A stretch of DNA of 64,000 nucleotides from Candidatus Bathyarchaeia archaeon (GTDB taxonomy: Archaea > Thermoproteota > Bathyarchaeia > Bathyarchaeales > Bathycorpusculaceae), in assembly GCA_050012255.1 (NCBI GenBank), contig JBEKHN010000006.1, positions 1-64,000 of the forward strand, given 5' to 3'. Positions 15,275 to 37,305 of the stretch are shown in pieces. The notes beneath the pieces were generated by a model. The model was not told where the DNA came from. It saw only the letters and a list, made by a program, of their open reading frames with translations, and made no database searches. The first letter of the stretch is position 1. Each line of letters opens with the position of its first letter. The translations under genes and the position numbers were made by a program.

Positions 15275-15865
15275 CTATGGAATCAACACCCATGTACCTG
15301 CAGTTGAATCATATCGATACCTATTCCAAGCAGCAGACACATCATCAAACTTGAACATGATTTTCTCGAACGCTTCATTGCAACCATAGAATTGTCTCAC
15401 TTCTCTTCGTAGCCAGGCTGGACGATTTGAATACCAACGGTTTAACAAGATATGGGTTAGGTTGTTGAACCCGTCAGACGGATAGCTTGTCCTGAAGTTT
15501 TCAATGACCTCTAGACCTTCAAGATATCCTGGCAGGGCCATTCGGTCTATACTTTCTTCCAGAAGGACTATTATTTGCATATCCTTTATTCCTGCACTTC
15601 CTATCTCTTGATGAACCTTCACCTTATTCTGTGCATTGTATGTGTACAAAACGACGAAAAAATGGCATTGGTTTATGAGCCTCTTGACCTTTTCTTTCCA
15701 TAGAAGCGTACCTGGTTCCTGAAAATATTCGGCAACAAGTGGATTCACGTTATTCCAAGATAGAACTTTCGCGAATATATCTACAATATTCATGTCTTCA
15801 CTAGCATGACTAATAAAGACATTGAAAGGTTGGTCCAACCCAAATTCTGACGTTCTCAGCACCAT
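15275..15865 (-). CDS. TIR domain protein
   Basis: VFISHASED...FFVVLYT...VHQEIG TIR pattern with catalytic-position Glu. Confidence 0.85.
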   Translation of the reverse strand: MVLRTSEFGLDQPFNVFISHASEDMNIVDIFAKVLSWNNVNPLVAEYFQEPGTLLWKEKVKRLINQCHFFVVLYTYNAQNKVKVHQEIGSAGIKDMQIIVLLEESIDRMALPGYLEGLEVIENFRTSYPSDGFNNLTHILLNRWYSNRPAWLRREVRQFYGCNEAFEKIMFKFDDVSAAWNRYRYDSTAGTWVLIP

Positions 15866-17096: not shown

Positions 17097-17406
17097 ACGC
17101 AAATTGGACAATGATGATCAAAAACCTCATTATGATACCGTGGCCTCGGCCTTTCTGGGAGTCTCAAGCACAATGATGGCAATCATTGGAAGTTTGTTAC
17201 CATTTCTAAAGATCCAAAAAGCTTTGAGCAACGCGCAGTCTTTTCTTTTTGTTTCAGTGATAGTTTTTCTCATTACGACAATCGTAGCCAGCACATTAAG
17301 CCTAATGGAGCGAAACGATACTCGGTTCAAAAGAGTTCTTTGCAAGATATCCGCGATCCCGTTGATAATTTCCACGGTAATCCTTGTCGTGATAATATTG
17401 ATTTGA
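17059..17406 (+). CDS. Small membrane protein
   Basis: Three hydrophobic segments; start uncertain. Confidence 0.55.
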   Translation: MERKTTVLSKDGERKLDNDDQKPHYDTVASAFLGVSSTMMAIIGSLLPFLKIQKALSNAQSFLFVSVIVFLITTIVASTLSLMERNDTRFKRVLCKISAIPLIISTVILVVIILI

Positions 17407-17411
17407 ACTGG

Positions 17412-17587
17412 TAGCGCGCATGCTTGTTCCGAAATTGGCTAAAAATGGTTTTTATTCTTCTTGTGGGGTTTGGGACACTTTCAGGTATCGTGCATGTCCA
17501 TGCCTTTTATGACAAGCAACTCTTCCCGAAATGCGAGAGCGGAATTAAAACCATTTTTGACCATTTTAGGAACACGCATGCGCGCTA
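17412..17587. mobile_element. 176-bp MITE-like unit with ~46-bp imperfect terminal inverted repeats
   Basis: TAGCGCGCATGCTTGTTCCGAAATTGGCTAAAAATGGTTTTTATTC ... GAATTAAAACCATTTTTGACCATTTTAGGAACACGCATGCGCGCTA. Confidence 0.7.
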
Positions 17588-17675
17588 AGCGTTGGTCATG
17601 AGGTGATACCTTAGATGAGCAGGAAAAAGATATCAGGAGGTATTTTCAACTGAATCAGCAGGGAGGGCGCTATGT

Positions 17676-19256: not shown

Positions 19257-20492
19257 TCATTGCTTTTTCTCCGCATGATACGCGATCAAGGATTTGACAT
19301 AGTTTTCAACTTCATCCCCTAGCTCAGGTGGCAAGGAACGAAGCTGGGTCCTAGGTCTGCAAATCAATCCGTTGTATCGTCGATCCTTTCCATTTCTCCT
19401 GATCCTGCGGGCGCGAGCGCTTTCCCAAAGTTCTTTGAGAGTCTTTTTCTCCGCACCAACAAGAGAACCTATCCTTTCTTCGAACAATCCACCAGGACAT
19501 GGATAGACTTCTCCTCTGACATTAGCGTACAGTGCAAAGTTTCGCTGTCTGCAGACATGTCCGCCTGCAAAAGCTGAGACTCCTTCAAATTTGATTTTGT
19601 TTCTTGGGTTCATATTCCACCAATAAATCCTTTTCCAGAGGTCTATTTTCTCTTTTCTACAAACGTCATAGACTTCGCGTTGTTCATCCCATTTTGTCTT
19701 TCCACAGGGTATGAAGGTGACTACGAGCGGATATATATTGAGCCTTCTGAAATGAGCATACATCCTGAGAATCTCCTCGTAGTTTCTGTATTTTCCTCCC
19801 AAGACAAGAATGTCCGCTCCCAATCTGGTAGGGTTGCTCCTGTTTAGTCCGACCTCTATAAGCCTTTCAATGCAGAGCTTGCTAAACCGTGTAAAGTCAT
19901 ATCGCTCTCCTTCCTTCTGGCTGATGACTATCCGTTTTCCTTTGAAGAAGAACTTGGGCAAGCCGACGATGCGGTTTTGAAGTTCGCCTTTCAGACTGTT
20001 AACCTTGACTATGACCGAGACATCCAGGTCGCCCAAGAGGCTAGCCAAGTCGCTGCCACTCATACCGTAAATTTGATTTGAGAGTCTATCGTCTCCTATT
20101 ACATGCCCTGCTGTGAAAACCAGAGGAATCATTCCTAATCTGTGAACATACCTGAGAACTTTCAGGAACTGCCGATCTTCAAAAGGCTCGCCTTGACCCA
20201 CAAAGTGAATGGACTTACAGCCAAGTGCTTTTGCCTGCTCGATGATCTTCGTTGCCTGCGGTAGACTGATCTTGGGCAGGCCTCGGTCGCGCACGTCTTC
20301 TCTTCTAAAGCAATAGCCACAATTCAGGCTGCACTTGATTCCCCACTCGAAATCAAGCATAAGCATTCTGTCGGTGTTTTCAGCTTTTCTGATCTCTTCT
20401 TCTGAAAACGTCCATCCGCGTATACCATTAATGTATCTTGGTCGGAACGTAGCAACACCCCTTTCGCTTTCAATAGAATTACTTACGTGCAT
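19257..20492 (-). CDS. Radical SAM protein with SPASM/Twitch-like C-terminus
   Basis: CSLNCGYC, GQGEPF, C-terminal C...GEVYPC. Confidence 0.88.
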   Translation of the reverse strand: MHVSNSIESERGVATFRPRYINGIRGWTFSEEEIRKAENTDRMLMLDFEWGIKCSLNCGYCFRREDVRDRGLPKISLPQATKIIEQAKALGCKSIHFVGQGEPFEDRQFLKVLRYVHRLGMIPLVFTAGHVIGDDRLSNQIYGMSGSDLASLLGDLDVSVIVKVNSLKGELQNRIVGLPKFFFKGKRIVISQKEGERYDFTRFSKLCIERLIEVGLNRSNPTRLGADILVLGGKYRNYEEILRMYAHFRRLNIYPLVVTFIPCGKTKWDEQREVYDVCRKEKIDLWKRIYWWNMNPRNKIKFEGVSAFAGGHVCRQRNFALYANVRGEVYPCPGGLFEERIGSLVGAEKKTLKELWESARARRIRRNGKDRRYNGLICRPRTQLRSLPPELGDEVENYVKSLIAYHAEKKQ

Positions 20493-21743: not shown

Positions 21744-22070
21744 ATGTTGTATATAGCCAAATGTAGACGTTGCGGATACCTAGTGCACAATGAATCCTGT
21801 CCAGACCTTAAAGCTGACTTGAGTCGACACCTGAACGATTCGCACAGGGAAGGCTATGATTTTCCTCTGCATGTCACTATGAAGGACTATAAGGCTTCTT
21901 TCGTCATAACCACAATTCACGACGCTGAGGAAGTTGAAGGTATCCTATCCGTCATAAACAATCGTGGGTTTTGGGTGGCTATTCGTAGCCATCCACACCT
22001 AGAAAACACCCTTTTTTCTGGTTTGGGCAACGGGGAGTTTAAGCTCTTTCTGAAATCTGAACGGAACTAA
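21744..22070 (+). CDS. Hypothetical protein, N-terminal C2H2-like zinc site
   Basis: CRRC...HLNDSH. Confidence 0.65.
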   Translation: MLYIAKCRRCGYLVHNESCPDLKADLSRHLNDSHREGYDFPLHVTMKDYKASFVITTIHDAEEVEGILSVINNRGFWVAIRSHPHLENTLFSGLGNGEFKLFLKSERN

Positions 22071-22111
22071 CGCCGTAGAGGTTAGACTCTACACAAAAAG
22101 GAGAATATGTT

Positions 22112-22582
22112 ATGCCAAAACCACGCCAAGCTCAAACGGAAGCCGTTACTGTTCCCGCAGAGGACAGGCTAGAACTGCTAGAGGGTTTTGTGAACCTCGT
22201 TTCTGAACGATGGGGCTATCTGACAGCTCGCAGGCTGACTCAGAAGGACATGAACGAGAAGACCGCAACCGAATCTAAGGCGGCACGTGAGATTTCGAAG
22301 GCTATTGGTGAGAACGTGGAGAAGCTCATCAAGACACCTTCACAGGAAATCGCTAAGGTAGTCGTTGCCAAACGTGAAGCTCTCAAAGATGCACGGACGA
22401 CTCTGAAGGATGCCCGCAAGCCGTTCAACGAGAAGATGACACCTCTAGCCAGCATTATCAAATACTGTGACAGCGTGGCTATTCCCGACTCTCTGAAGGA
22501 GTTAGGACACCCCGTTGTCCCACGTTTCAGCCTGTCCGAATGGGCGCAGAAGGCGGTAGAGCAGACCAAGAAAAAGGCGTAA
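22112..22582 (+). CDS. Hypothetical coiled-coil protein
   Basis: 156-aa ORF with AGGAG SD, followed by CCC-polyT. Confidence 0.7.
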   Translation: MPKPRQAQTEAVTVPAEDRLELLEGFVNLVSERWGYLTARRLTQKDMNEKTATESKAAREISKAIGENVEKLIKTPSQEIAKVVVAKREALKDARTTLKDARKPFNEKMTPLASIIKYCDSVAIPDSLKELGHPVVPRFSLSEWAQKAVEQTKKKA

Positions 22583-22624
22583 GCTCTGTTTCTTGGCAAA
22601 CCCCTTTTCCCCTTTTTTCTACTT

Positions 22625-23225
22625 GCTAGAGTCAGAGTGAGTAATCACCTGACGGCATAGAAAGGCTACCTCCACGAGCAAATATCCATTCAGACAGACT
22701 AAAGAGCTTGCAATAATGTGGGTTCTCTAAAAGCCTAGTTCCCAGCCATAACCTCGTATGCGTCACCTAATTAACCCGTTACTTGTTAATGGCTTCTGAT
22801 TAGATAGAGGACGTTGGGGTTATGACGGCTGGAGATAAACCCACGTCAAAGACTTGCGTCTATGCTGTTCGCCCTAAAGGTCTGTCTAGTGTTATGACCG
22901 CCGCCTGTATGGGAAACAGGCACCACCCCAATGTAGAACACTGGACAGGTAACCGACTAGGACACCAACCGACCTTAAAGCTAATGTTTTAAGGTGATGG
23001 TAGGGCTCTCTTTTAGAGGTGATTGGCGGGGAAGCCAGTGACAAAAGAGGGATAGCCTGTTGAAACACAAAACAGAAGCCTCTTTACGTTTTGCCGCATG
23101 CTTGTAAGAGCCACCCCCAAATTCATTGTCTTGCAAGCCCTCAATTTGAGTAGGCAAACGCAGGCAGCCATGCGAAGTGATTTGCACGGTAAGGAAAAGG
23201 GGCAGGGTTAGCGTAGACGCTACAA
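22625..23225 (+). ncRNA. Candidate ~600-nt structured RNA of unknown class
   Basis: Nested helices seen by eye: GNRA hairpin 22631-53; 22718-24/22838-44; 22742-55/22816-32; 22884-93/22937-46; further helices to ~23222; no plus-strand ORF. Confidence 0.6.
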
Positions 23226-23246
23226 TGCTTTCTGGGGTGAAATGAA

Positions 23247-23372
23247 ATGGGAATAATAAGCCCACAACAGCTGTATGACGACCCGAAGCTCTGGCTGTCG
23301 GTAGACCACCAATTCCACAGTGTGCTAGGGAAGCTGATGGAAAAACTGTTTCCCGATTGGTCGGGAAACTGA
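23247..23372 (+). CDS. Small hypothetical protein (41 aa)
   Basis: MGIISPQQLYDDPKLW... preceded by GGGGTG at 23234. Confidence 0.45.
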   Translation: MGIISPQQLYDDPKLWLSVDHQFHSVLGKLMEKLFPDWSGN

Positions 23373-23512
23373 ATGCCATCGGGTGCCATTGCCTACTGTG
23401 CGATGGTCAAGAGCTTGTTCCCTGCACAAGCGGAGATGGCAAGAAGGGCCTGATTACAGGCTGGGTTGAAAAACCAGAGAAATTGCTGAACATACGAGAT
23501 GTAACCAAATAG
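23357..23512 (+). CDS. Small Cys-containing hypothetical protein (51 aa)
   Basis: ...GCHCLLCDGQELVPC...; stop abuts the next array leader; start uncertain. Confidence 0.4.
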   Translation: MVGKLNAIGCHCLLCDGQELVPCTSGDGKKGLITGWVEKPEKLLNIRDVTK

Positions 23513-23542
23513 CCCTCTTTTTTCTGTTCTGGGGTGTTCACG

Positions 23543-23695
23543 TTGAAGTATCAAGTGATTTTCACCGCAGGCTACGAAATTGATGCAAAGAACAAGAAAC
23601 AAGCCGAGGAAAAGGCGAAACTTGAGTTTGCCAAAGAATTGATAGAAGAAGGAGCAAAACGTTTTCTCGTAGACGTCATCCCGCTGAAGGGTTGA
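23543..23695 (+). CDS. Small hypothetical protein (50 aa, absent from ORF track)
   Basis: MKYQVIFTAGYEIDAKNKKQAEEKAK...; TTG after GGGGTG; TGA overlaps ligase ATG. Confidence 0.65.
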   Translation: MKYQVIFTAGYEIDAKNKKQAEEKAKLEFAKELIEEGAKRFLVDVIPLKG

Positions 23696-24693
23696 TGCAG
23701 ATGTATGTAAAGCCAATGCTGTGCCAAGAACTTGTAGTCAATGGAATACTTGAAAACAACGGACTTGACGGAGAAAAGGTGACTGCAGCATACAGGAAAG
23801 CCATAGCGGAAGCACTTCGAAAGCTAATGGCAAGAAAGTTCGTCTCCGAGAGGAAAGCTACCTGAATAGCCCTCAGATGGGACGGCACGAGAGTTCTTGT
23901 CATCAACGAAGACGGAACAATAATTCTGCAGAACCGCAACGGAATCATCTACACTATAAGGCTACCCGACATTGTAAAGCCGCTGAAAGCAATTCCTGGC
24001 AGGTGGAAGCTCGATGGCGAAGTAGTCTTCATAAGCCCTAAAACTGGGGAAGAAATGTTCACGCCCTGCCAACGCCGCTGCAGTACCCAGTATCCTGACC
24101 CATATCTTCGAGAGCAGTTTCCCGTCAAATTTGAGGTTTTCGACCTTTTAGAAGCTGGCGGATCCAATGTTGAACGGGAGCCCTACTATAAACGCAAGGA
24201 CAGGTTATACACGCTCTTGACGGTGAATACAGATGGCGACGTTGTAGAGTACGTGCCGTATGACAGCAACCTTCCAGAAGCATGGGAAGAAGCGGTCAAG
24301 CAAGACCGTGAAGGCTTAATCGTGAAACAACTCGAAAGCCCGTACGAAGAGGGCGACAGATCTTTCAACTGGCTCAAGGTAAAAAACTGGAGATTTGAAC
24401 GCTGCAATGTAGTCGGTTTTACAGCTGGCGAAAGAGCCCGCAGCCATTTCTTCGGCAGCCTTGTACTCGAGCAGAACGGCCAGTTTAGAGGATGCGCCGG
24501 CAGCGGGTTCAACGGGTGGGAACTGCGGCGTTTCAAAGACATGTTTTCAGATGCGCCAAGGGTGCCGAAGCCTTACAGTGATGAGCAAGTAGGCGAGCCC
24601 TATACAGCCGTCAAAGTCAACATTCAAGTTCTCGTGAAGTACTATCAAATCACAGAAAACAAAGTGTTTCGGTTCCCGATATTCATAGCCTAA
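23695..24693 (+). CDS. ATP-dependent DNA ligase (325 aa after removal of the 21-nt intron)
   Basis: KPML; motif I ERK[intron]WDGTR; LDGEVV; FEVFDLL; EGLIVK; WLKVK; OB-fold GSG...RFP. Confidence 0.9.
23856..23876 (+). other. Bulge-helix-bulge (BHB) intron, 21 nt, in ligase mRNA
   Basis: GAGG/CCTC 4-bp helix with AAA and AGA 3-nt bulges, inner GCTA/TAGC stem; in-frame TGA at 23863; excision restores AAA TGG. Confidence 0.82.
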
Positions 24694-24725
24694 ATCCCTT
24701 CTTTTTTCCTATTTGGGGTGTTACA

Positions 24726-24968
24726 ATGGCAATGCGAGGAAAACACACCAAGAAATTCAGGGACGAGCAAGCAGAAAACGATAGCTTCGTAAGACTTGTT
24801 GGTGGAGTCAAGAGAGCTGATCGTATGCAGCAAATCTGGAATATGAGTTATCCTCAAGGTAACTGCGGTATGTTGAAGGGAAAAAGCAAGGAAGAAGTCT
24901 TCCGCGAGAAGGCGAAAGCAGAGGGCTTCACAGACATATAGGTTAACAGGTTCTTAGACCTACCATAA
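24726..24968 (+). CDS. Hypothetical protein with probable premature TAG at 24939
   Basis: Frame continues VNRFLDLP to TAA 24968, next to the following leader. Confidence 0.55.
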
Positions 24969-25001
24969 TCTCTTTCCCTTTTTTTCTGTCGGGGTGTAAT
25001 A

Positions 25002-25802
25002 TTGCCCACATCAACGATATGGCTGAAAATAGGAAACGCAGACGTAAGAGTGTACAAGCAGAAAGTCGGCAACGCCCTGATGGTCAAAGAACCCGAATTG
25101 GTCATGCAGATAGATGACAAGCCTGTGAACAATGTTCGGATTGTGGACCAGTGCCAGTGGGTCCGCGCAGGCACAGGCGAATCATTGACGGTTGAAACCA
25201 CTTTGAAAGACGCCAAAGGAGAGCAGATACCGATCTCAGAAGGAATGTGCATCCTTCAACACTACAAAAGCATTGTTCTCAACGAGAAAGCCGAACAAGT
25301 GGAAAAGAAGAAGATTCGATTCTACCTCTTGAACCCTGACGGCAGCATCGGAGACGAGGTAGCACCGTACCCGCCCACGGAGCGGATCGAGGTCAAAGAG
25401 GACGCCTCAGAAGCCAAGGAGCCCGGAGCCGCCTACTGGATTCCGTCAACAGTCATCGAAGGGTTCTTGATAACTGAAGAGTACGAGCTGCCCGTAGCTG
25501 ACCCTCGCAACGATCCTAAGGTATGGAAGGAAGCCGAAGACGCAGCCAAACGCGATGAGATAGCGATAACCACATACTCGAACGGTGGTTTCACACTCTA
25601 CTACGCTTTTTTGGTGCCTTTTTTCACGGAAGGACAGTTTGAGTGGTTGCTGAGGATCAGCAACAAGAAGGTAGAGCACCGTTGCTTGCACGACATACCG
25701 GCGCCTACACCTGTGCCTATTCGCCCGGTGAAGACACTCGAGACTCTGCCTCCGATTCAAGCCCTGCTGACCGTGCCGACGTCGAAAAAGAAGAAGCAAT
25801 AA
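25002..25802 (+). CDS. Divergent Ku-like DNA end-binding protein (putative)
   Basis: By-eye match to prokaryotic Ku core: TERIEVKE...WIPSTVIEGFLITEEYELP...VWKEAEDAAKRDEIAITTYSNGGFTLYYAFLVP; basic C-terminal tail. Confidence 0.55.
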   Translation: MPTSTIWLKIGNADVRVYKQKVGNALMVKEPELVMQIDDKPVNNVRIVDQCQWVRAGTGESLTVETTLKDAKGEQIPISEGMCILQHYKSIVLNEKAEQVEKKKIRFYLLNPDGSIGDEVAPYPPTERIEVKEDASEAKEPGAAYWIPSTVIEGFLITEEYELPVADPRNDPKVWKEAEDAAKRDEIAITTYSNGGFTLYYAFLVPFFTEGQFEWLLRISNKKVEHRCLHDIPAPTPVPIRPVKTLETLPPIQALLTVPTSKKKKQ

Positions 25803-25852
25803 AAGCCTAAAACTTCCCTCTTTTTTCTGTTTGGGGTGTCATCATAAAGCAG

Positions 25853-26452
25853 TTGACATTATCCAGAGATATCAGCATCAGCGGAAACTCTAAGCAGATA
25901 GCGAAGGCAAAGAAGATTCTGAGCCCTATGCTGAATCGCCTTGAGACGCTGAACGTGGTGCAAGCAAGACTGAGTCTCCAGGACGCCATCGACGACAACA
26001 CTCTGTACGCATCTATTCTGTTCAGAGGACAGGTGGTGTGGGGCAGAAAAAGAATCACAAACAATCTCAAGCGCATAATCGCAAGAGGCCAGCTCTACGG
26101 GAACAAACAGGTCAAGTGGATGCGTGTGAACCCAAACATTTGCTTACCATCCGTGCCGCAAGATTTCAAGCCGATACTTTCCGAGTACTTCTATCAGTTC
26201 TTAACCATGTGCTGCGGCAGCAACCCGCATTACAGTCGCGCCGGCTGGATAGGCATCTACCCAACCTTAGCCGATCTGAAACGATTCTTCATGAAGAACG
26301 AGCACGGCAAGCAGGTGTCCGACTATGTCCCGGACTGGAAAGCAGACGCACAAAGAGTGGTGGAAGACATCGAACGCATGCTCTACCCCTTCCGAAGCTA
26401 CCTAAAAGCCAAAGAAAAAGAAGAAGCACGTCGACAACACCGCATACGTTGA
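25853..26452 (+). CDS. Hypothetical protein, paralogue A
   Basis: LSEYFYQFLTMCCGSNPHYSRAGW shared with the next gene. Confidence 0.75.
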   Translation: MTLSRDISISGNSKQIAKAKKILSPMLNRLETLNVVQARLSLQDAIDDNTLYASILFRGQVVWGRKRITNNLKRIIARGQLYGNKQVKWMRVNPNICLPSVPQDFKPILSEYFYQFLTMCCGSNPHYSRAGWIGIYPTLADLKRFFMKNEHGKQVSDYVPDWKADAQRVVEDIERMLYPFRSYLKAKEKEEARRQHRIR

Positions 26453-26486
26453 AGCTCCCTCTCCTTTTTCTCCTTGGGGTGAAACA

Positions 26487-27080
26487 TTGGAGAAAACATT
26501 GCTCGGCGGTCCAGCGTCATTTCGAGATCACGCACGAATCCGGATCATAGGAAAAAAGGCTGACGTGGAAAAGGCCGAAACAGCATTAAAAGCTATTGCC
26601 GATTTACAGTCTCTTCCCGAGCCTAAGGCTCGCTTAGAGATCCAGAGGATAATTGAAGAACAGGATTTGAAGGCACACATATTATTTGACGGAAACACCG
26701 TTTGGAACACGAAACCTATTCTCGCAAATCTGAAGAGAATAATGGAGCACGGAACACTCTACAACGGAAAAAAACCAGCTTACGTTCCGATAGGCAGCAT
26801 GTTACGCATGCCAGTTGTTGGGGAATGCATACTCTCCGACTACTTCTACGATTTCCTGCACCTAGAATGCGGAAGCATAGCACACTACAGCAAGCAGGGC
26901 TGGGTGACCGAGTACCCGACTGTTGAGGATCTCAAAGCATTCTTTCAGAAAAACGAGTTCGGCAAAAGAGTCTTAGACAACATTCCAGGTTGGATGACTG
27001 ATGCCAAGAGAGTTGTCGAGGAGATTGAACAGATGCTGTTTCCGCTCCGGAGTTTCATTAAAAGCAAGCAGAACGCTTAA
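26487..27080 (+). CDS. Hypothetical protein, paralogue B
   Basis: LSDYFYDFLHLECGSIAHYSKQGW. Confidence 0.75.
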   Translation: MEKTLLGGPASFRDHARIRIIGKKADVEKAETALKAIADLQSLPEPKARLEIQRIIEEQDLKAHILFDGNTVWNTKPILANLKRIMEHGTLYNGKKPAYVPIGSMLRMPVVGECILSDYFYDFLHLECGSIAHYSKQGWVTEYPTVEDLKAFFQKNEFGKRVLDNIPGWMTDAKRVVEEIEQMLFPLRSFIKSKQNA

Positions 27081-27108
27081 TCCCTTTTTTTCTGTTTGGG
27101 GTGTCCCT

Positions 27109-27480
27109 ATGGGAGCTACATCAGTAAAAGTCGCAAGGATTCCGAATTGTGACTTCTGCAAAATGGACGGCGTAGACAGACCAGCGAAATATGATGGCAG
27201 GACTGAAGCGGGACCTTGGGCTAATATGTGTCAGGAACACTTTGGCCAGCATGGTGTGGGCTTAGGCGAAGGCAGAGGGCAAATGCTTGAGCTCCAACCG
27301 AAACTCACGGCCAAGAAATCCAATGAGGTCCCGACTGTTGAAGTGCCGCTGAGTCTTGACGATGCTTGCGAGGTCCAGTGTCCTCACTGTGGCGAGAGCA
27401 GAACCGTAGAACCTGACGCAAACTACGTTGTGACCTGTGAAGGCTGCGGCAACAAATATGAGGTCGCATCGGCAATCTGA
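27109..27480 (+). CDS. Zinc-binding hypothetical protein
   Basis: CDFC...YDGRT..GPWANMCQEH and CPHC...CEGC; ATG 27109 after leader. Confidence 0.75.
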   Translation: MGATSVKVARIPNCDFCKMDGVDRPAKYDGRTEAGPWANMCQEHFGQHGVGLGEGRGQMLELQPKLTAKKSNEVPTVEVPLSLDDACEVQCPHCGESRTVEPDANYVVTCEGCGNKYEVASAI

Positions 27481-27522
27481 GCAAACAATCTTAAATTCTC
27501 TTTTTTCTGTTTGGGGTGTAAA

Positions 27523-28587
27523 ATGAAACAGTTATTTCCAGAAGACGACACAAAACCACACTTTTCACTGAAGGAAATGCGGCCAATACCTGCTGCAAAG
27601 GGACCTAAGAGAGCACTGCTTGAACTTATGGACGAAGTTGAAATGAAAATACATCATTTCAGGAAAGAATGCTGGAACATAACAATAGAGCTCCTAGCCG
27701 ACTATCTAGGGTTAATGTCGAACCCTTGGAAATACAGTCTCCCAGACGCAAAATGGGCGGGACCGATAAGTAAACCAAGCTATCACGGTCTCCAGCAACT
27801 CAAGGGACAGGTTCCAACAAACCTGATAGAACAGTATGTTAAGGAAGCCAAAGCCAAACCGTGGGACTACCCCGGCGAAATCTTCATCGAAGAGGAATTG
27901 GCAGGCAGAAGTAACAGGCTGGGACAAATGCTGACACCTAAGCAGATAGTAGATTTTATGATAAAGACACTAAACATTGGGCAAATAAAACAGAATGCTT
28001 TCGGAAGGCCCGATGAGAGGACCGAGGCTTGGCTGAGTGTTGAAGCATTGGCTTATGAACATGCCCTGTCTAAGCTGTCAAGAGGTCTTCTCACGGAACA
28101 TCAGCACCACAGACGCATTGTAGATGTTGAACCAGTATGGGAAAAGTACACTATAAAGCCTCAAACCGTGCTAGAACCTGCGGTTGGTACAGGCCGATTT
28201 CTGATTGAAGCAACTGTACTGGAGCCCAAGGCACCTATGGTGTTGTTCGGAATTGAAATAGACCTCTCACTTTATCGTGCATGCCTTGTAAACATGGCAA
28301 TGTTCAGCAATCATCCATACAGCATAGTGTGTGCGGACACGCTGATGGTCGCCCCGCCTTTTTGTGGTCCGGGAAGCAAGCTCTGGGACTACGGCAATCA
28401 GTGGGATCCTCCGGACATCTCTATGTTTTATTGGAAACCAACACCGCCATTCAAGTTCTCACTGGCAGAATTGGCAAAGACAAGAAAGGAACAACCACTT
28501 GGACCACAACAAGTAGCAATCATGCCTGAAACACCGCCGGCATTCTCTCTTGCACAGTTTGTAAAAGCGAAAAAGAAGCAGACGTAA
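27523..28587 (+). CDS. N-6 DNA methyltransferase-like (HsdM-type SAM-binding part)
   Basis: GQMLTPKQIVDFM, VLEPAVGTGRFL, LFGIEID...ACLVNM, CADTL. Confidence 0.75.
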   Translation: MKQLFPEDDTKPHFSLKEMRPIPAAKGPKRALLELMDEVEMKIHHFRKECWNITIELLADYLGLMSNPWKYSLPDAKWAGPISKPSYHGLQQLKGQVPTNLIEQYVKEAKAKPWDYPGEIFIEEELAGRSNRLGQMLTPKQIVDFMIKTLNIGQIKQNAFGRPDERTEAWLSVEALAYEHALSKLSRGLLTEHQHHRRIVDVEPVWEKYTIKPQTVLEPAVGTGRFLIEATVLEPKAPMVLFGIEIDLSLYRACLVNMAMFSNHPYSIVCADTLMVAPPFCGPGSKLWDYGNQWDPPDISMFYWKPTPPFKFSLAELAKTRKEQPLGPQQVAIMPETPPAFSLAQFVKAKKKQT

Positions 28588-28623
28588 ATCCCTCTTTTTT
28601 CTATTCTGGGGTGTAATGTTGGA

Positions 28624-29247
28624 ATGGTTGAGCATCTCTTGGAAGTGATACAGAGGCCTCACGTTCTGCGTGACCGAGTTCATCCGCAAAGGGAATCGAA
28701 TGTAACCCAGCCATCGAAGACGTCACAGAATCTTCAGTACCTCTTGGATCGTGTCAGGATGCGCAAATGGGTCTATGCAGTGCACGATGATTTGATGGAA
28801 GCCATCATTGAACTTCGACATGAAGTGAAGTTTATCGAGCATCTGCCGGGCTGCTGGCTCTGGAAAATGGAGCTCCAGCTGGACGTGGAGCGGTACTGTG
28901 GAAACCATTCATTCTGGTATGTGGGTCTTGAAAACAGCGAGTACCTGGAAAGACGATATCGCAGCTGTCCCAAGGAGCGGAACTACGTGATACCATCGTA
29001 CTGGGAGCAGCTTCAGTACTACAGAGAGCACGGCAGCCTAGACAGCATGGAAAACACAACGGTGCAGTTCATTCTTGACAGGGCAAAATGGGCTTACAGG
29101 ATCTGTGGAAAACAGATAAGGCTGGCCAGACGATTACTCCGCATGGTGAGAAACTGGAATTTCAGTGACCCTAACATGATCTGCGAATTCAACAGAATAT
29201 ACGAACGCCTAGGAATGTACGATGTAGCCCTTCCCTTCGAAGTCTAA
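28624..29247 (+). CDS. Hypothetical protein
   Basis: 207-aa ORF in array; start uncertain. Confidence 0.6.
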   Translation: MVEHLLEVIQRPHVLRDRVHPQRESNVTQPSKTSQNLQYLLDRVRMRKWVYAVHDDLMEAIIELRHEVKFIEHLPGCWLWKMELQLDVERYCGNHSFWYVGLENSEYLERRYRSCPKERNYVIPSYWEQLQYYREHGSLDSMENTTVQFILDRAKWAYRICGKQIRLARRLLRMVRNWNFSDPNMICEFNRIYERLGMYDVALPFEV

Positions 29248-29279
29248 CCCTTCCCACTTTTTCTATCGGGGTGAAACAC

Positions 29280-29735
29280 ATGCCAACAATAAGAAGTGAA
29301 TATGGCTTTGACCAGTTCACAACTCTATTACAGAAATTCGCATATGAAGTAGCTATGGATGCCGTGACAGACCTACGACACGACCATGTTCGAATAGATA
29401 TTGGTGGCCACAGATTCCAATATGTTGATACTGGCAAGTACATGCTTAGGTTCTCTCCGTCAAGGATCAGTTTTATGAAGCAAGATAAGACAGACCACTG
29501 GAGCTTTGAAATTGAAGAGAAACTCTACATGACGAGCAATCACCGTACCAAAATATCTTTTATAGTGGCAGTTGAGTCGGTGTACGACGAAAAGACACAG
29601 CGTTACATCGAGCACGACCGCAGGGAAAAGGAGAAAGCACGAGAAAAAGAGATCCGCGAGTTCATAGAGAAAATGATGACTCAAAACTCAATGAAGCCGA
29701 TGCCCAGATTCTCGTTAAAGACCGGACCCGCCTAG
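29280..29735 (+). CDS. Hypothetical protein
   Basis: ATG 6 nt after GGGGTG. Confidence 0.65.
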   Translation: MPTIRSEYGFDQFTTLLQKFAYEVAMDAVTDLRHDHVRIDIGGHRFQYVDTGKYMLRFSPSRISFMKQDKTDHWSFEIEEKLYMTSNHRTKISFIVAVESVYDEKTQRYIEHDRREKEKAREKEIREFIEKMMTQNSMKPMPRFSLKTGPA

Positions 29736-29771
29736 ACAACCAGTATATTCCTCCCTTTTTTCTATCTCGGG

Positions 29772-30116
29772 GTGAACAAAATCAACAACCTTCAAATGAA
29801 ACATCTGTTGAAGCTCTGTAAGAAACATGAAATTGATCCCTACGAAATAGACAGCACTTTATCCTACTCTGAAGTCAAGAAACACATACAATCCCTCATC
29901 ATAAGCCCTGAAAAGGACTTGGACAAGTGGGATTCCGCGGAAGAACAGTACCTCAAGGACCATCCTCTCTGGAACTACATCATGAACACATCGAAGACCA
30001 GACACAGGAAAGTCCCTCCTGAACTGGAAGGATTCTCACTGAGGGCTTATGCGCAAAGCTTAAAAACACAGGCTAACCGTTCTCCGTTCTCTCCGAATGA
30101 ATGCTTAAATACGTAA
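29772..30116 (+). CDS. Hypothetical protein
   Basis: 114-aa ORF after leader. Confidence 0.6.
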   Translation: MNKINNLQMKHLLKLCKKHEIDPYEIDSTLSYSEVKKHIQSLIISPEKDLDKWDSAEEQYLKDHPLWNYIMNTSKTRHRKVPPELEGFSLRAYAQSLKTQANRSPFSPNECLNT

Positions 30117-30154
30117 TAACCCTCCTTTCTCTTTGTACGAAGTGGGGTGGTACG

Positions 30155-30361
30155 TTGGGTAAAAAGAAAACAGCCAGCCAAGCAACTGAACGACTCAATC
30201 TGTATCTCGAACCAGACTTAGCAAGGAAACTCAGCAACTATTGCCTTGCAGTAGAGAACAAGCAGCAGAGAATAATCACACACATTAAACACAAAATAAC
30301 TAAAAAGGCACTGGAAGAATGGCTCGAGAAACACGCTGACGACCTGACTATAAAACTCTAA
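30155..30361 (+). CDS. Small RHH-like protein
   Basis: RLNLYLEPDLARKL...ITKKALEEWL; TTG after GGGGTG. Confidence 0.6.
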   Translation: MGKKKTASQATERLNLYLEPDLARKLSNYCLAVENKQQRIITHIKHKITKKALEEWLEKHADDLTIKL

Positions 30362-30915: not shown

Positions 30916-30952
30916 TCACCCCTTTTTTACACTTTCTTGTCTATTGTCGGAT

Positions 30953-31231
30953 TAGCGCGCTGCCTTGTCCCGAAATTGGTCTAAAATGGTCATAATTCCT
31001 ATTTTCGGGTTTAGGGACAGTTTTGAGGCATATATCTGTTTTTAGTCCTCCTCTGCGCTTTGACGTCCCAGACGGACTAGATGTAGCTTCAACAGCTTAT
31101 GGGAGAACTCTACTTCCATCGAGCTTTGATGGAACCCCGTGATTTGCCATCTTTCAACGCGGTCAAGATTACCCGTCAAACAAGCTCAAATCAAGCTCCA
31201 ATAGACAAAAGAAGAATAAAAACCATTTTTA
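30953..31231. repeat. Second, right-truncated copy of the MITE-like unit
   Basis: Left end TAGCGCGCTGCCTTGTCCCGAAATTGGTCTAAAATGG; 31211-31231 is the exact reverse complement of 17440-17460. Confidence 0.65.
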
Positions 31232-31724: not shown

Positions 31725-32485
31725 AAGAAGAGAAAAGCCTAAGCCATACAATAGAAAAGGCTCTAGTCAAGCTGAAAGAGGATGCAGTACGGTAAGCACT
31801 AGCATGACTTCGAAAATGAGGTGTCCTTTAGGTCTTATTTGAAGGCTTGAATAACTCTTGTTGAACACAAGGCAAAGAGAGGCTATGTATATTTACCATC
31901 ATTTTGGTGAATGTTGCTGAGTGTTCAATTAAAACAATGTAACTCTTCGAAAACTACCAGAGGGATGTCACTATTTCGAAATTCCCATCATTTTTCCATA
32001 CGAAAGAAGTGACCTACTTCTGGTCTTTCTCGAAATATTGTGGAAATCATGTTGAACACGTCCAACAATATAACCAAAGAAAAGAGGCGCATAGTAATGG
32101 GCAAATGCGAAAAGAGCCACGAAAAGAGTTTGTTTCTGAATTTGCAGTTTGATTGAGTCAATATAAAATCGGAAGATTTCGGAAAACTTTAATAGGATGT
32201 CCTGACACTACGAATTGAGGGGGGCAAGCAATAAGAGAGCGGGAAAGTGATGTGATGGATAGATTTCAGCCATTCTCGGTGGAAGCCAGCCGAGCCTATT
32301 CATCCTTCACCCCGAGAGATGCATAATCTAATATACGTTGGCTATTTCAACCTTGTGCCCCAAAACTGGTTCTAGTCAAACTGAAGCGCGCGCGCATCGC
32401 GGAGCCTTACACTGGGACCTTCAGCTTAACCCCCCACAGTTCGAGAAAGGCGGACACTCCAAGAAGGCCGAAAGCTGACGCGAGG

Positions 32486-32576
32486 CCTAAAATTGTCCCC
32501 AAATCACAAAAGACGATCGATCGAAAAGACGAATTAAGACCATTTTTAACCATTTTCGGAACGGGCATGCGCGCTA
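32486..32576 (-). repeat. Third copy of the MITE-like terminal repeat (inverted)
   Basis: GAATTAAGACCATTTTTAACCATTTTCGGAACGGGCATGCGCGCTA; supplies the TAG stop of the UvrD gene. Confidence 0.7.
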
Positions 32577-35339
32577 TTTCCGTGAGCATATCTTTTGCCA
32601 GTCACAGTAAACGCAATTCCTTGAGGGCTTGGGAGTAAAGGCGCGATCGATTATACGTGAGATTGCATGACTTGCTTCTTTTGTGGCTTTCTCAAGATGA
32701 AGAGGAGCAATCTTTACGTATTCTTTCTGACGCTTGTGCTTTCGGTCTAGATGGTGAATGCATGCGCGCTTAGGGTTCAGGCCTAGTGATCTGAGACAAG
32801 CAATGGCATAGAGCCTCAGCTGCAATTCATAGTCCTTCTTGTACAGATCGTCAGTTTCTTTCTCGGTTTTGAAATCTATGATTTCGACCTCCTTCACATT
32901 TCCTTTCTCATCGAGTTTTTTCAGAAGGTCGATTTGCCCTGTTATCAGAGCTTCGCCAAGGACGAGCTCGAATCTTTTTTCGGTTTCAAGCACCTTTGTG
33001 AAGTCTGTCTTGTTTACCATCACATAGTTCTTGATTACTCTCTTTCCAGCTTTTTTCAGGTTGTCGGTAATCTTGGTCGTTGCATATCTTAAGAAGAAGT
33101 ATTTGTCAAAAAGCCCGTCTATGCTCGGCTCATCAGGGATTTTCTTACTGGTAATGAAGTCTTTGTAGATGATGTTAAGTATGTTGTGGAGTCTCGTTCC
33201 ATATCCGAATGCTGGCGGGACGCCTGCTTGATATCCATAAATGTTTCTGAGTAGATAGTCGTAGCCACATCTTCTGTAGCAGTTAATGTCGCTGAAGGAA
33301 GTGGGGAATATGCTACCGCTGATTTTTCTTGCAGGATATCCTGAGCGTTTCCTTGTTATGACCGCGTTGTGAGAGAAATTGGCGCAATGTGCGAGTTCGC
33401 CCATGAAAGGATGCGGTTCGAAAGCCGCCGGGCGCTTGTATGGGGTTCCATCTTTCTTTTTTCGTTTTGCTGAGCCCGTTATGAAAAGGTATTTCATGGA
33501 CCTCGTTATCGCAGTGTAATAGACTCTTCTCTCATCTTCTATGTCGCCCTCATACTTAGCTACGTCATATAGTTTCTCATCGATCAGGGTTCCCCCGAAC
33601 GCTCTGTGTCTTTCCTTGACAAAGCTTGGAATGAAGACCACAGGAAATTCAAGGCCTTTTGCCCGGTGTATTGTTAGGACTTTGACCGCGTTTATGAGTG
33701 CAGGATCATTGTGGCTGGTGTCTGCGTAGCTGTGCTTGCCGTAACCTTCGACAAACCCGAAGAAGTATTTGACTTCTGAAGCGCGCAGTCTTATCCACAC
33801 AGATTCATAGTCTGCTATTGCGCGGCTCAGGATCGCTAGGTTGTAGTTGTAGACATCGCGAAATTCGAATCTGTCAGCCCCAAAAGCTTGGATTATCTCA
33901 TGGAAATATGGTTGCAGGCCATATGCAAGATAGCCTCGTTTGCCTGTAGCCATGATCTTGCGAACAGCTTTCTTCATTCTCCCGAGAATTCTGACAAAGC
34001 GTCGTGCGTCAGACTTAGGATATTCACGTTTTGGAAAGACGGTGGTATATTCTGTCATTAACTCTCTGCTGGTCACTGTGTTGTCTTCAAAGGACAGGTT
34101 GAACAGATATGCCAAGCACTTCAGACTCAGTACGACCTCAGGTCTATTGAACACTTCTTCGCCTATGTCGAGGACGCAGTCGATGCCTTCCTCATCTAAG
34201 CGTCTGACTATCTTGGCGGCTTCGTCTCGTTTTCGGGTCAGGATCGCAAAGTCACCATATGATAGGGAAAACGGTGTGCCCTTCTTATCGCAAAAATCAG
34301 TTCCAGAAAGTGCTCCGATTCTGTCGACTATGAATGAAAACTCGTCATCTTCGGTGTCAAAATGGGTGTAGAACAGGTCATCGTTTTGAGGCTTGTTGGC
34401 CTGCTTCTTGCTGGGTTTCATTTCTTTGCGAAGCCTTCGTTTGTTATGTCTAATGAAATTCTTTGCGCAATCGATGATCTGAGATGTGCTCCTGAAATTA
34501 TGGGGAATAGGTACCGTGATCACATTATGATAGTTCTTCGGGAAGTTGATGATGTTATCAACAGTGGATCCGCGCCAGTTGTATACGCATTGATCGTCGT
34601 CGCCGACCACGCAAAGACTCCTGCCCCCTTTGGAGATCAGTTTTATCAACTTCTCCTGAAGAGGGTCCACGTCTTGATATTCATCCACTATGAGGTGCTG
34701 TACCTTTTCATGAAGCCTCTTTCTAGCGTCTTTGCTTTTCTCAAGTAGATCCACAAGACGATATATCATCGAAGTGAAATCGAGAAATCTATCTCTGTCC
34801 AAGAATGCATCATATTCATTACAACATCTCCGGAAATCCTTGTTTGAGAGGTCACTGGGGTTGACGTTTTCCATTCGCAGAATGTCATAGCTGTTTGAGA
34901 ATTCGAGAATGGTGTGAAACTTGCCGCCATCTTCCAGTTGAGGAAGGTTGGAATAGTTGTAGCGACGTGGCATTGCGAGAAAGGCCACTCTTTTTGGTTC
35001 GTCAAGTACATCGTAGCCTCTGTAATGGGGCTCGAGCTCTTTGAGCATCTCAAAACAGAAGCTATGTATTGTCCCAACGTACATGTCCCCTAGATCAGCC
35101 TTACTCGGACATTCTCTATCAAGAATGGATCTTATACGCGCTTTCAGTTCTTCAGCTGCCTTTTCAGTGAAAGTGAATGCAACGATTGACGCTGGTTTTT
35201 CGCCTTTTTTTACTAGTTCGGCGATTCTACTTGAAACAACTTCGGTTTTTCCTGATCCTGCACATGCAATGACCTGCAGATTGCCGGATAGATTGTTGAC
35301 GGCCTTCTTTTGTTGCTTTGTGAAAGGGAATTTTGGCAA
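32574..35339 (-). CDS. UvrD/PcrA SF1 helicase fused to C-terminal PD-(D/E)XK nuclease with Cys cluster
   Basis: ACAGSGKT, VDEYQD, VGDDDQ, TIHRAKGLEF, GQIDL...IIDFKT, CVYCDWQKIC. Confidence 0.93.
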   Translation of the reverse strand: MPKFPFTKQQKKAVNNLSGNLQVIACAGSGKTEVVSSRIAELVKKGEKPASIVAFTFTEKAAEELKARIRSILDRECPSKADLGDMYVGTIHSFCFEMLKELEPHYRGYDVLDEPKRVAFLAMPRRYNYSNLPQLEDGGKFHTILEFSNSYDILRMENVNPSDLSNKDFRRCCNEYDAFLDRDRFLDFTSMIYRLVDLLEKSKDARKRLHEKVQHLIVDEYQDVDPLQEKLIKLISKGGRSLCVVGDDDQCVYNWRGSTVDNIINFPKNYHNVITVPIPHNFRSTSQIIDCAKNFIRHNKRRLRKEMKPSKKQANKPQNDDLFYTHFDTEDDEFSFIVDRIGALSGTDFCDKKGTPFSLSYGDFAILTRKRDEAAKIVRRLDEEGIDCVLDIGEEVFNRPEVVLSLKCLAYLFNLSFEDNTVTSRELMTEYTTVFPKREYPKSDARRFVRILGRMKKAVRKIMATGKRGYLAYGLQPYFHEIIQAFGADRFEFRDVYNYNLAILSRAIADYESVWIRLRASEVKYFFGFVEGYGKHSYADTSHNDPALINAVKVLTIHRAKGLEFPVVFIPSFVKERHRAFGGTLIDEKLYDVAKYEGDIEDERRVYYTAITRSMKYLFITGSAKRKKKDGTPYKRPAAFEPHPFMGELAHCANFSHNAVITRKRSGYPARKISGSIFPTSFSDINCYRRCGYDYLLRNIYGYQAGVPPAFGYGTRLHNILNIIYKDFITSKKIPDEPSIDGLFDKYFFLRYATTKITDNLKKAGKRVIKNYVMVNKTDFTKVLETEKRFELVLGEALITGQIDLLKKLDEKGNVKEVEIIDFKTEKETDDLYKKDYELQLRLYAIACLRSLGLNPKRACIHHLDRKHKRQKEYVKIAPLHLEKATKEASHAISRIIDRAFTPKPSRNCVYCDWQKICSRK

Positions 35340-36231: not shown

Positions 36232-37305
36232 ATGGAGCGCACCGTTGCCGTCAGCTACCTGCAAAACATTATGGGAAGTAACAAGGCCATGGGGCTTGTC
36301 GCTCAAGCTGATTTTCAAAAATGGGTACATGAGTGCGGTGGCAATGTCGAAAGAAAGTACTTTAATGGTTGCTGGGTTATGTCTCCGAAGGGTTCAACCG
36401 CAAACAAGAGAATGTGTTTTTTTGTTCATGAGAAAATTGAGACAAAAGAAGCACTTCAATCTGCCGTTGATTCCTTGATTTTGAATAGAGGTTTTCATGG
36501 TCTTTGCGGTTCTATGGTTCGGTCCGGATTCGGTGTTTTCCACTGCTTTGCGATTGGCAACTCCAATACTGGGAACCTCGGGGATCTAGAATGGACATTG
36601 TACAGATATCGAAACGAGAATCTTAGCCAAATAGACGCTCAGCAACTCTTTGCGATCTGGCCAGGAAGAGGAAGAGCAGGCCGCAGGGCTGCATGGGATG
36701 CTCGCGTCATAGACAGGTACCAAGTTCTCGATCTCCACGTCCTCGAATCGCTCGTGTTGAATCAAGTCTTCTTTAATTCATTCGTTAAAGAACTGATGAA
36801 AAAGCCTGTTGCCGATCCCTATGATGTCGATGGCTTTTTTGTTTCATATGAAGGAAAGATCCTGCCGTTGGAGATAAAGGAAAAATTTCCTTTTGAGGCA
36901 AATAGGGTCAAGCTTCTTGGAATTGACGCGGGGAGAATACTCATGCTGATGCGGATATGTCTTCCTTTGGACTGTAATGGTCTCTACATAATTAGGGAAG
37001 TTGAGGATTCTCCGCAGAGACGTTTTGTGGGTTGGAAAATGACGACCCTTGATTCTATAGTCATGAACTCCAACTGGACCCTTCAAGCTGGCGGTACAGG
37101 CATGACAGGTGGTCCAACACAGACCGTGACATTTCCATACGAGTGCTTTTCAGATCTCAATGCACAGACATTTTCTGATGAAAGCCTGCATAGAATCAGC
37201 GAATTTTCGAAGATTATCAAGGAAAAGGCAGCTGCTTTTCAAGACGGGGTTGAGAGATTTATTGAGTCTGCTTCATCTCAATCTCAGCGGAGCCTACCTG
37301 CTTGA
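36232..37305 (+). CDS. Putative PD-(D/E)XK restriction endonuclease
   Basis: PYDVDG...LEIKEK; converges on the C5 methyltransferase. Confidence 0.6.
   Translation: MERTVAVSYLQNIMGSNKAMGLVAQADFQKWVHECGGNVERKYFNGCWVMSPKGSTANKRMCFFVHEKIETKEALQSAVDSLILNRGFHGLCGSMVRSGFGVFHCFAIGNSNTGNLGDLEWTLYRYRNENLSQIDAQQLFAIWPGRGRAGRRAAWDARVIDRYQVLDLHVLESLVLNQVFFNSFVKELMKKPVADPYDVDGFFVSYEGKILPLEIKEKFPFEANRVKLLGIDAGRILMLMRICLPLDCNGLYIIREVEDSPQRRFVGWKMTTLDSIVMNSNWTLQAGGTGMTGGPTQTVTFPYECFSDLNAQTFSDESLHRISEFSKIIKEKAAAFQDGVERFIESASSQSQRSLPA

Follow-up and report, generated by a model that had tools for sequence, protein, structure and literature searches.

A putative, highly divergent Ku-like protein encoded beside a LigD-type ligase with a candidate intron on a Bathyarchaeia mobile element

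Parts of two earlier papers (PMC1378119; PMC9638933) describe Ku as a homodimeric ring that binds DNA ends and whose C-terminal arm contacts DNA, recruits a ligase and stimulates it. Few archaea are on record as having such a protein: the section of PMC7719229 that deals with this lists Ku together with a ligase (LIG) in 10 of 243 archaea, and the excerpted text of a 2025 survey (PMC11936186) counts 19 archaeal Ku and 11 viral Ku, the viral ones all from actinophages. Here we analyzed a stretch of 64,000 nucleotides (nt), called the window throughout (positions 1 to 64,000 of contig JBEKHN010000006.1, assembly GCA_050012255.1, Candidatus Bathyarchaeia archaeon), in which a gene for a protein of 266 amino acids (aa) lies close to an ATP-dependent ligase gene on a small mobile element. 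An initial annotation, made from the sequence, had viewed the two genes as a mobile, minimal module for non-homologous end joining (NHEJ), composed of a divergent Ku and an intron-containing ligase. Our analyses indicate that the protein is very probably a member of the Ku superfamily, as judged from a chain of homologues, and we consider it probable that it is a very divergent Ku, carried by an element in a Bathyarchaeia-like chromosome, that works with the adjacent LigD-type ligase on DNA ends.

The pair has features in common with several described systems and departs from each of them. Like prokaryotic Ku (PF02735, TIGR02772; the Mycobacterium tuberculosis proteins 8v53 and 9i91; the Ku on contig C10 of the window's own host), the window protein is a single domain of ~260 aa with a basic C-terminal tail, an adjoining LigD-type ligase and, at the level of its family, profile similarity from the N-terminal strand through the core. 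It differs in that its family is missed by the standard models, has ~35 extra residues and is borne on a mobile element; of the genes of the element that were scanned, none was recognized as a polymerase or phosphoesterase partner. Actinophages (Corndog, Omega, and others) also carry Ku on a mobile genome. Their Ku proteins are ordinary, readily recognized and dependent on host LigD, whereas the window protein, taken as a Ku, is very divergent, has an archaeal host and comes with the element's own ligase. Pitcher et al. 2006 are said to have found that end joining by actinophage Ku circularizes the phage genome. Gam of phage Mu is another small, distant relative of Ku on a mobile element and, in the relevant part of PMC1378119, binds DNA ends as a homodimer, but it has no dedicated ligase and no Gam family gave a sequence match to the window protein. 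Finally, archaeal NHEJ sets such as that of Methanocella combine Ku with an ATP-dependent ligase in an archaeon, and the window's host has such a set on C10. Those sets are chromosomal and canonical, in contrast to the window pair, which is a second, element-borne and divergent set with candidate introns in its genes (for the Ku-like gene, in relatives only).

The open reading frame (ORF) for the Ku-like protein is a real, conserved gene and not a chance open frame. A word-indexed protein search (431 candidates) gave 48 homologous clusters at E ≤ 0.001 with identities of 37–100%, all of them metagenomic, with 0 Pfam domains and with “hypothetical protein” as the sole name where there was one. 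An exhaustive phmmer search of 1.84 billion representatives returned 37 proteins at E ≤ 0.001, of which 15 also passed ≤1e-10 and 4 passed ≤1e-30. The same gene was found in 37 metagenome loci and in the genomes G000 (the window's host), G522, G199, G385, and G555. An alignment of 32 close family members (A1) has 16 invariant columns, and the C-terminal tail, TLPPIQALL...KKKK, is conserved in it. The start codon is TTG. We consider this start to be sound because a GGGGTG Shine-Dalgarno-like box ends 5 nt before it and because most full-length homologues start at the same codon, with MP followed by T, S, or L at that position of the family alignment. The initial annotation had described a 266-aa ORF ~300 bp downstream of the ligase, with an N-terminal IW...VRVYK strand and a basic tail. 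These features were all found: the gap is 308 nt, with both genes on the same strand, and the translation has IWLKIGNADVRVYK at its N-terminus, the segment TERIEVKE...YYAFLVP at residues 126–206 and KKKKQ at its C-terminus.

The relationship to Ku emerged through intermediates. In a single-sequence search over the library of 1.84 billion proteins, the window protein matched a protein that we call P0074 with E 3.3e-5 (residues 136–249 versus 114–227). P0074 itself matched the Pfam Ku family at 27 bits (cut-off 25; E 4.8e-6) over residues 76–203, and the part of P0074 matched by the window protein overlaps this Ku domain. Pfam Ku matches were present in four of 19 distant representatives, namely P0074, P0081 (E 0.005), P0050 (0.011), and P0079 (0.059); P0050 is an intermediate member whose weak match is confined to its N-terminal half. 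The bridging subgroup was defined by eight seed proteins (alignment A4), a search from which gave 39 proteins, aligned as A5. Precomputed PF02735 assignments exist for 14 of the 39, and Pfam Ku was matched at E ≤ 0.1 by 17 of them (best 4.6e-8), with any other family in at most two members. Thus, some bridging proteins are already tagged as Ku automatically, and none in the window's family is. By profile comparison the window family is clearly homologous to the bridging subgroup: hhalign of A1 gave Prob 99.8 and E 7.3e-30 over 163 columns against A4, and Prob 99.7 and E 6.6e-26 against A5, while A1 with the intermediates added and bridging members excluded (41 sequences) gave E 8.7e-33 against A5.

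Pooling the family brought known Ku proteins within reach. When 177,635 distinct sequences of the PDB were searched with the A5 profile, there were two matches at E ≤ 10, both to bacterial Ku (8v53 and 9i91, E 0.0012), and the same two were on top (E 0.011, next match E 5.4) with a pooled 80-sequence family alignment headed by the window protein (A8). A hidden Markov model (HMM) of 62 canonical archaeal Ku proteins scored bridging members at up to 19.8 bits, and hhalign against the same 62 gave Prob 93.5 and P 2.2e-7 for A5. For the pooled family the values were Prob 88.4 and P 2.8e-6, with a score of 48.4, and the 146 aligned columns extend from the N-terminal strand to YYAFLVP; reversed Ku scored 14.0, and 40 column shuffles averaged 14.9 with a maximum of 25.4. 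In that alignment IWLKIG..VRV pairs with IWSGTVTIGLVNVPVRL of Ku, EEYELP with RSYILTP, and YYAFLVPF with EYPVLVHPY, which is the same register as the Ku-core spacing that had been drawn by eye in the initial annotation. Predictions for P0074 in the ESM Atlas point the same way, as Ku clusters were on top of its feature matches (0.95, 205 shared features), nine of the ten best belonged to the Ku family or clan, and all five structural neighbors of its model were Ku, at template modeling (TM) scores of 0.47–0.49, sufficient by the Atlas criterion to assign a name. The Ku-like identity is therefore borne out by transitive and pooled-profile homology, and not by the window protein alone.

Direct comparisons weigh against this identity. 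Searches of the window protein found no Pfam family, and PF02735, the family that the initial annotation had proposed for a check, matched neither it nor its 32 close relatives; for the window protein, PHROGs and NCBIfam also gave no match. The threshold of the Ku models (PF02735, TIGR02772) was not reached by the window protein itself, and PDB sequence searches with the protein or its close-family profile returned noise only. BLASTP against the host's own Ku was not significant (E 0.35), the HMM of the 62 archaeal Ku scored the window protein at −1.8 bits, and its ESM Atlas model had a predicted local distance difference test (pLDDT) value of 0.31, at which the structural neighbors were unusable. 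With hhalign, the close family was not significantly similar to a shallow Ku alignment (E 0.056), which consisted of sequences ≥70% identical and was replaced by the 62 more diverse Ku proteins, translated from their loci, nor to the latter (E 0.13). Adding the intermediates to A1 gave only P 0.0043 and a score of 27.9 against the 62. Furthermore, ~35 residues of the window protein (residues ~52–86) align with nothing in Ku or the bridging subgroup.

One explanation for these results would be that the protein is not a Ku and that a chance or convergent beta-rich pattern is found in a protein with some unrelated role in the element. This would account for the lack of a direct significant Ku match for the protein and its close family, and the structure likewise is only predicted, and for P0074. 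Nevertheless, Pfam, the PDB-wide profiles, the shuffle-controlled hhalign comparisons and the language-model and predicted-structure neighbors, although they all rest on the same chain of relatives, point only to Ku, and the partner gene is the expected ligase. We consider such a coincidence very unlikely. Rather, the divergence of the window protein places it beyond the reach of standard Ku models.

The second line of evidence is the ligase. An intact relative of the window ligase had as its best NCBIfam match TIGR02779 (“non-homologous end-joining DNA ligase”, E 4.4e-42) at 144 bits, which is below the curated cut-off of 227.75, and as its best PDB match the ligase domain of M. tuberculosis LigD (1vs0, E 3.3e-19). 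The ligase has nucleotidyltransferase and OB domains only. When the 37 metagenome loci, the window's own contig among them, were examined by tblastn, a ligase was located near the Ku-like gene in 25. These include all 15 loci in which 2.6 kb or more was available on each side, and all 21 with 2 kb or more of upstream sequence. In all 12 loci without a ligase the upstream flank was shorter than 1.75 kb. The ligase was always on the same strand as the Ku-like gene, 35–1526 nt away, 22 times upstream and three times downstream. The 25 linked loci do not represent 25 independent events, because some are near-duplicates (e.g., L096/L097/L098). Among the genomes, the ligase adjoins the Ku-like gene in four of five (G000, G522, G385, and G555). 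The exception, G199, has its only two PF01068 matches on other contigs, which is a point against the interpretation that we favor. Overall, the linkage of the Ku-like gene to a LigD-type ligase is near-obligate, and the co-occurrence in related elements by which the initial annotation proposed to judge the pair is present in every metagenome locus with enough flanking sequence.

This linkage bears on two other roles for a Ku-fold protein. The first is that of an end binder comparable to Gam, which would cap the linear ends of the element and block host exonucleases without any joining, the ligase serving another task. The published parts of PMC1378119 and PMC8987985 that concern Gam describe it as a Ku orthologue that forms a homodimer and protects linear Mu DNA; the window element lies among defense-like host genes, including a UvrD/PD-(D/E)XK helicase-nuclease, and the G199 gene has no ligase beside it. 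On the other hand, linkage in all of the loci with sufficient flank is the pattern of a joining pair, PADLOC assigned nothing to the window protein, and no Pfam or PHROGs family was matched at E ≤ 0.1, Gam (Phage_Mu_Gam) included. We therefore regard an end cap as unlikely. The second role is that of a ligase accessory in replication or integration of the element, in which the protein would be a DNA-encircling or DNA-binding loader for nick sealing and not a break factor. A ligase composed of only nucleotidyltransferase and OB domains, with no DNA-binding domain of its own, could use such a loader; a methylase-like gene also shares the conserved array with both genes, and ParB-like and AEP primase-like genes are nearby in G522. 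However, known Ku proteins load from DNA ends and not from nicks, and the nearest named relatives of the ligase are NHEJ ligases, so that we find a nick-sealing accessory improbable.

For a Ku that acts with its ligase in end joining, which we favor, the following steps are proposed. Two copies of the protein would assemble into a homodimeric ring and slide onto the ends of double-stranded DNA, and its conserved TLPPIQALL...KKKK tail may help to bind DNA and to recruit the element's minimal LigD-type ligase, which is encoded next door and would seal the ends. We infer the ring dimer, end binding and ligase recruitment because they are established for known Ku, and the conserved tail would suit them. 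The likely uses would be circularizing or re-joining of element DNA and the repair of breaks made by host nucleases. The roles suggested in the initial annotation (anti-restriction, anti-CRISPR, or circularization, with activity gated by splicing) may likewise apply.

The possibility of gating by splicing arises from the ligase gene, in which, in the window and in two other loci, exactly 21 nt separate the K codon of motif I from the W codon that follows it. Seven loci have no insert and read ERK directly into WDGTR, a canonical motif I, whereas in 15 further loci this site is occupied by inserts of 20 to 580 nt, most of them of a length not divisible by three, and G555 has 25 nt there. Minimum-free-energy folds of the 20-, 21-, 74-, 82-, 90-, 92-, 94-, and 100-nt inserts share one shape, in which an outer helix is followed by a 4-bp helix between two 3-nt bulges on opposite strands and then by an inner helix; the 95-nt insert folded differently and the 101-nt insert had the bulge shape only at a shifted register. 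The central 4-bp helix covaries (GAGG/CCUC, ACGG/CCGU, GCGG/CCGU, and GCAG/CUGC). We take this geometry to be the bulge-helix-bulge motif of the archaeal splicing endonuclease. The host genome encodes two EndA catalytic-domain genes and RtcB. Together, these predicted structures suggest that a protein-coding gene of a mobile element is here interrupted by an intron of the archaeal splicing-endonuclease type, in agreement with the description of the ligase as intron-containing in the initial annotation, and the insert would probably be removed from the ligase message by the host splicing endonuclease and RtcB before an active enzyme is made.

An RNA library offered a partial view of these genes, and one of its contigs goes the other way, as it crosses the ligase insert and retains it, and the unspliced frame has a TGA. 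In the same library, contigs of a relative match the ligase and a portion of the Ku-like gene (25374–25580) with no joints, although contigs of this kind cannot reveal rare RNA forms. As DNA carry-over is possible, the contigs show neither transcription nor absence of splicing.

Interruptions were also observed in the Ku-like gene, the frame of which is unbroken in the window copy. In four relatives (L103, L106, L104, and L111) the frame breaks after residue 198, within the most conserved block of the family (between GGF and ..YYAF). The insert in L104 contains a LAGLIDADG ORF (E 8.4e-6). The first part of the gene alone was seen in L107, and family proteins of 197–198 aa fit with gene calls for a first exon. 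In the minimum-energy fold, the 5′ edge of the Ku-like insert lies in a predicted AAA bulge by a 4-bp helix, and its 3′ edge is non-canonical. A possible second irregularity of the ligase is located near residue 79 (numbering of the G522 ligase), where the frame shifts by one in L079, L083, and L110, with a ~13-nt gap between the pieces, and where in L094 the two aligned pieces overlap. Another short insert, a frameshift or gene decay might account for this.

A broader hypothesis, which we put forward tentatively and with some doubt, is that small mobile elements of Bathyarchaeia carry a self-sufficient two-gene end-joining kit, made up of a Ku too diverged for standard models and a minimal LigD-type ligase, and that both genes are targets of mobile bulge-helix-bulge introns, some with LAGLIDADG homing endonucleases, at their most conserved codons. 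The kit would circularize or re-seal element DNA and aid its survival of host nucleases, and its expression would be tied to the RNA-processing state of the host, because the active ligase (in some relatives, the Ku as well) would need splicing by the host endonuclease.

The host has an end-joining pair of its own. Contig C10 (L001:575–3539) has a 287-aa ORF, then a canonical Ku (140.9 bits), then an ATP-dependent ligase. As the host has this canonical pair, a second set of Ku and ligase is not obviously needed, a further point against our interpretation. Ku was present in two of 151 genomes sampled from the host's phylum, consistent with the statement in the initial annotation that Ku is uncommon in archaea, and no canonical Ku was found in G522, G199, or G385. 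Our literature search found no report of such a pair or of Ku on an archaeal virus or element, although supplementary tables might list such genes, and the main text of a paper on Bathyarchaeia viruses (PMC10848311) does not mention ligase, Ku70, intron, end joining, or NHEJ. If our interpretation is correct, archaeal mobile elements would carry a Ku subfamily that has escaped annotation, comprises at least 48 clusters and is always accompanied by a ligase of its own; this would extend the range of Ku and mean that sequence models undercount it. It would also provide a minimal two-protein joining system for laboratory testing, and it bears on the movement of Ku genes between lineages. The intron-split ligase (together with the Ku-like gene in some relatives) would add to the protein-coding substrates of the splicing endonuclease beyond cbf5, the example given in the portion of PMC2738675 concerned.

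Table 1. Coordinates of the Ku-like gene, the ligase, their candidate inserts and surrounding features (window positions unless a locus is named).
Feature	Coordinates	Strand	Evidence or remarks
Ku-like gene, 266 aa, frame unbroken in window copy	25002..25802	+	ORF list, homologues, homology chain to Ku
T-run and GGGGTG box, intergenic, just 5′ of Ku-like start	24975..24996	+	Same motif before ~10 array genes
Ligase, first part, ends ...FVSERK (motif I lysine codon)	23692..23856	+	
21-nt insert in ligase motif I, candidate bulge-helix-bulge mini-intron	23857..23877	+	In-frame TGA at 23863–23865
Ligase, second part (WDGTR... to stop), nucleotidyltransferase and OB domains	23878..24693	+	PF01068 E 1.1e-15, PF04679
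Loci with motif I insert: window, L077, L083, L084, L087, L092, L093, L095–L098, L100–L103, L106, L108, L112, L120			
~49-nt interruption of Ku-like gene	L103:1879–1927, L106:6595–6643		Relatives; window codon 199
~703-nt interruption of Ku-like gene	L104:5994–6696, L111:175–877		Relatives; window codon 199
71-aa ORF between ligase and Ku-like gene	24726..24941	+	Relatives in 7/40 loci searched
Co-oriented gene array carrying the pair	21744..30361	+	Synteny with metagenome loci, G522, G555
Paralogous gene pair, ~198 aa each, just 3′ of Ku-like gene	25853–26452 and 26487–27080	+	
Zinc-ribbon gene	~27109–27480	+	In array
N6-methylase-like gene	27511–28587	+	In array
Integrase, TIR-domain gene, viperin-like radical-SAM, UvrD/PD-(D/E)XK (GajB-like), C5 cytosine methylase, around element	4397–5755, 15275–15865, 19257–20492, 32574–35339, 37259–38362		

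The window is part of contig C6 of a 2.35-Mb genome in 38 contigs; it begins with the 3′ end of an archaeal 23S rRNA and has one tRNA-Gln. The genes of the array that carries the pair (Table 1) have the same order in G522, G555 and many metagenome loci, and the window genes outside the array (17676, 19257, 30370, and 31347) had no counterpart in those loci. Relatives of the ~198-aa paralogues occurred in 18 of 40 loci searched, and neither a family nor a PDB match was found for them. A box, CCCTCTTTTTTCTGTTYGGGGTG, precedes ~10 array genes (window 23513–29775, + strand) and looks like a terminator-like T-run joined to an element-specific ribosome-binding site. In the whole 2.35-Mb genome, all five occurrences of the exact box pattern were at 23.5–29.8 kb of the window contig, and the reversed control gave 0.

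The gene family was present in four of 401 genomes sampled from the host's class, and one more, G555, was found when 61 genomes from the host's family were searched at the DNA level. Such a sporadic distribution is as expected of a mobile element, and the view of the initial annotation that the gene and its ligase form a mobile module stands on this basis. In the neighborhood of relatives, genes of the integrase, ParB-like, AEP-primase-like, tubulin-like, and LAGLIDADG kinds were seen only here and there, and the genes around the window element look like a defense or mobile island. Inverted repeats within the element are weak. No match was found when the window protein and P0074 were compared by tblastn with 50,697 phage records or when IMG/VR was scanned with the A1 and A7 profiles, and scans of genome contigs with P0239 and A7 for the bridging subgroup found no loci.

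A 46-nt direct repeat at 17542 and 32531 was considered as a pair of att sites and rejected, because it belongs to a ~180-nt repeat that is found in many genomes and in both orientations. That repeat (17405–17589 and 32395–32577) is present in many genomes of the host's family, and its ends match in both orientations, like those of a miniature inverted-repeat element. Another repeat unit, of ~280 nt (30952–31231), also occurs in many host-family genomes, at 79–92% identity and with several copies per genome. Within the element, the ORF-poor region 22826–23242 (~417 nt) is 97% identical to a segment of G555 (G555:C206), the flanking genes being 66–72% identical, and is conserved at 68–85% in several metagenome loci; an Rfam scan of 20.4–30.5 kb, this region included, gave no match. 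In DNA run X1, which contains 93% of the window's words, contigs of a related copy had a depth of ~120 versus ~15 for the window sequence (23809–23867 and 24243–24437), and therefore a relative of the element was much more abundant than the host copy in that sample.

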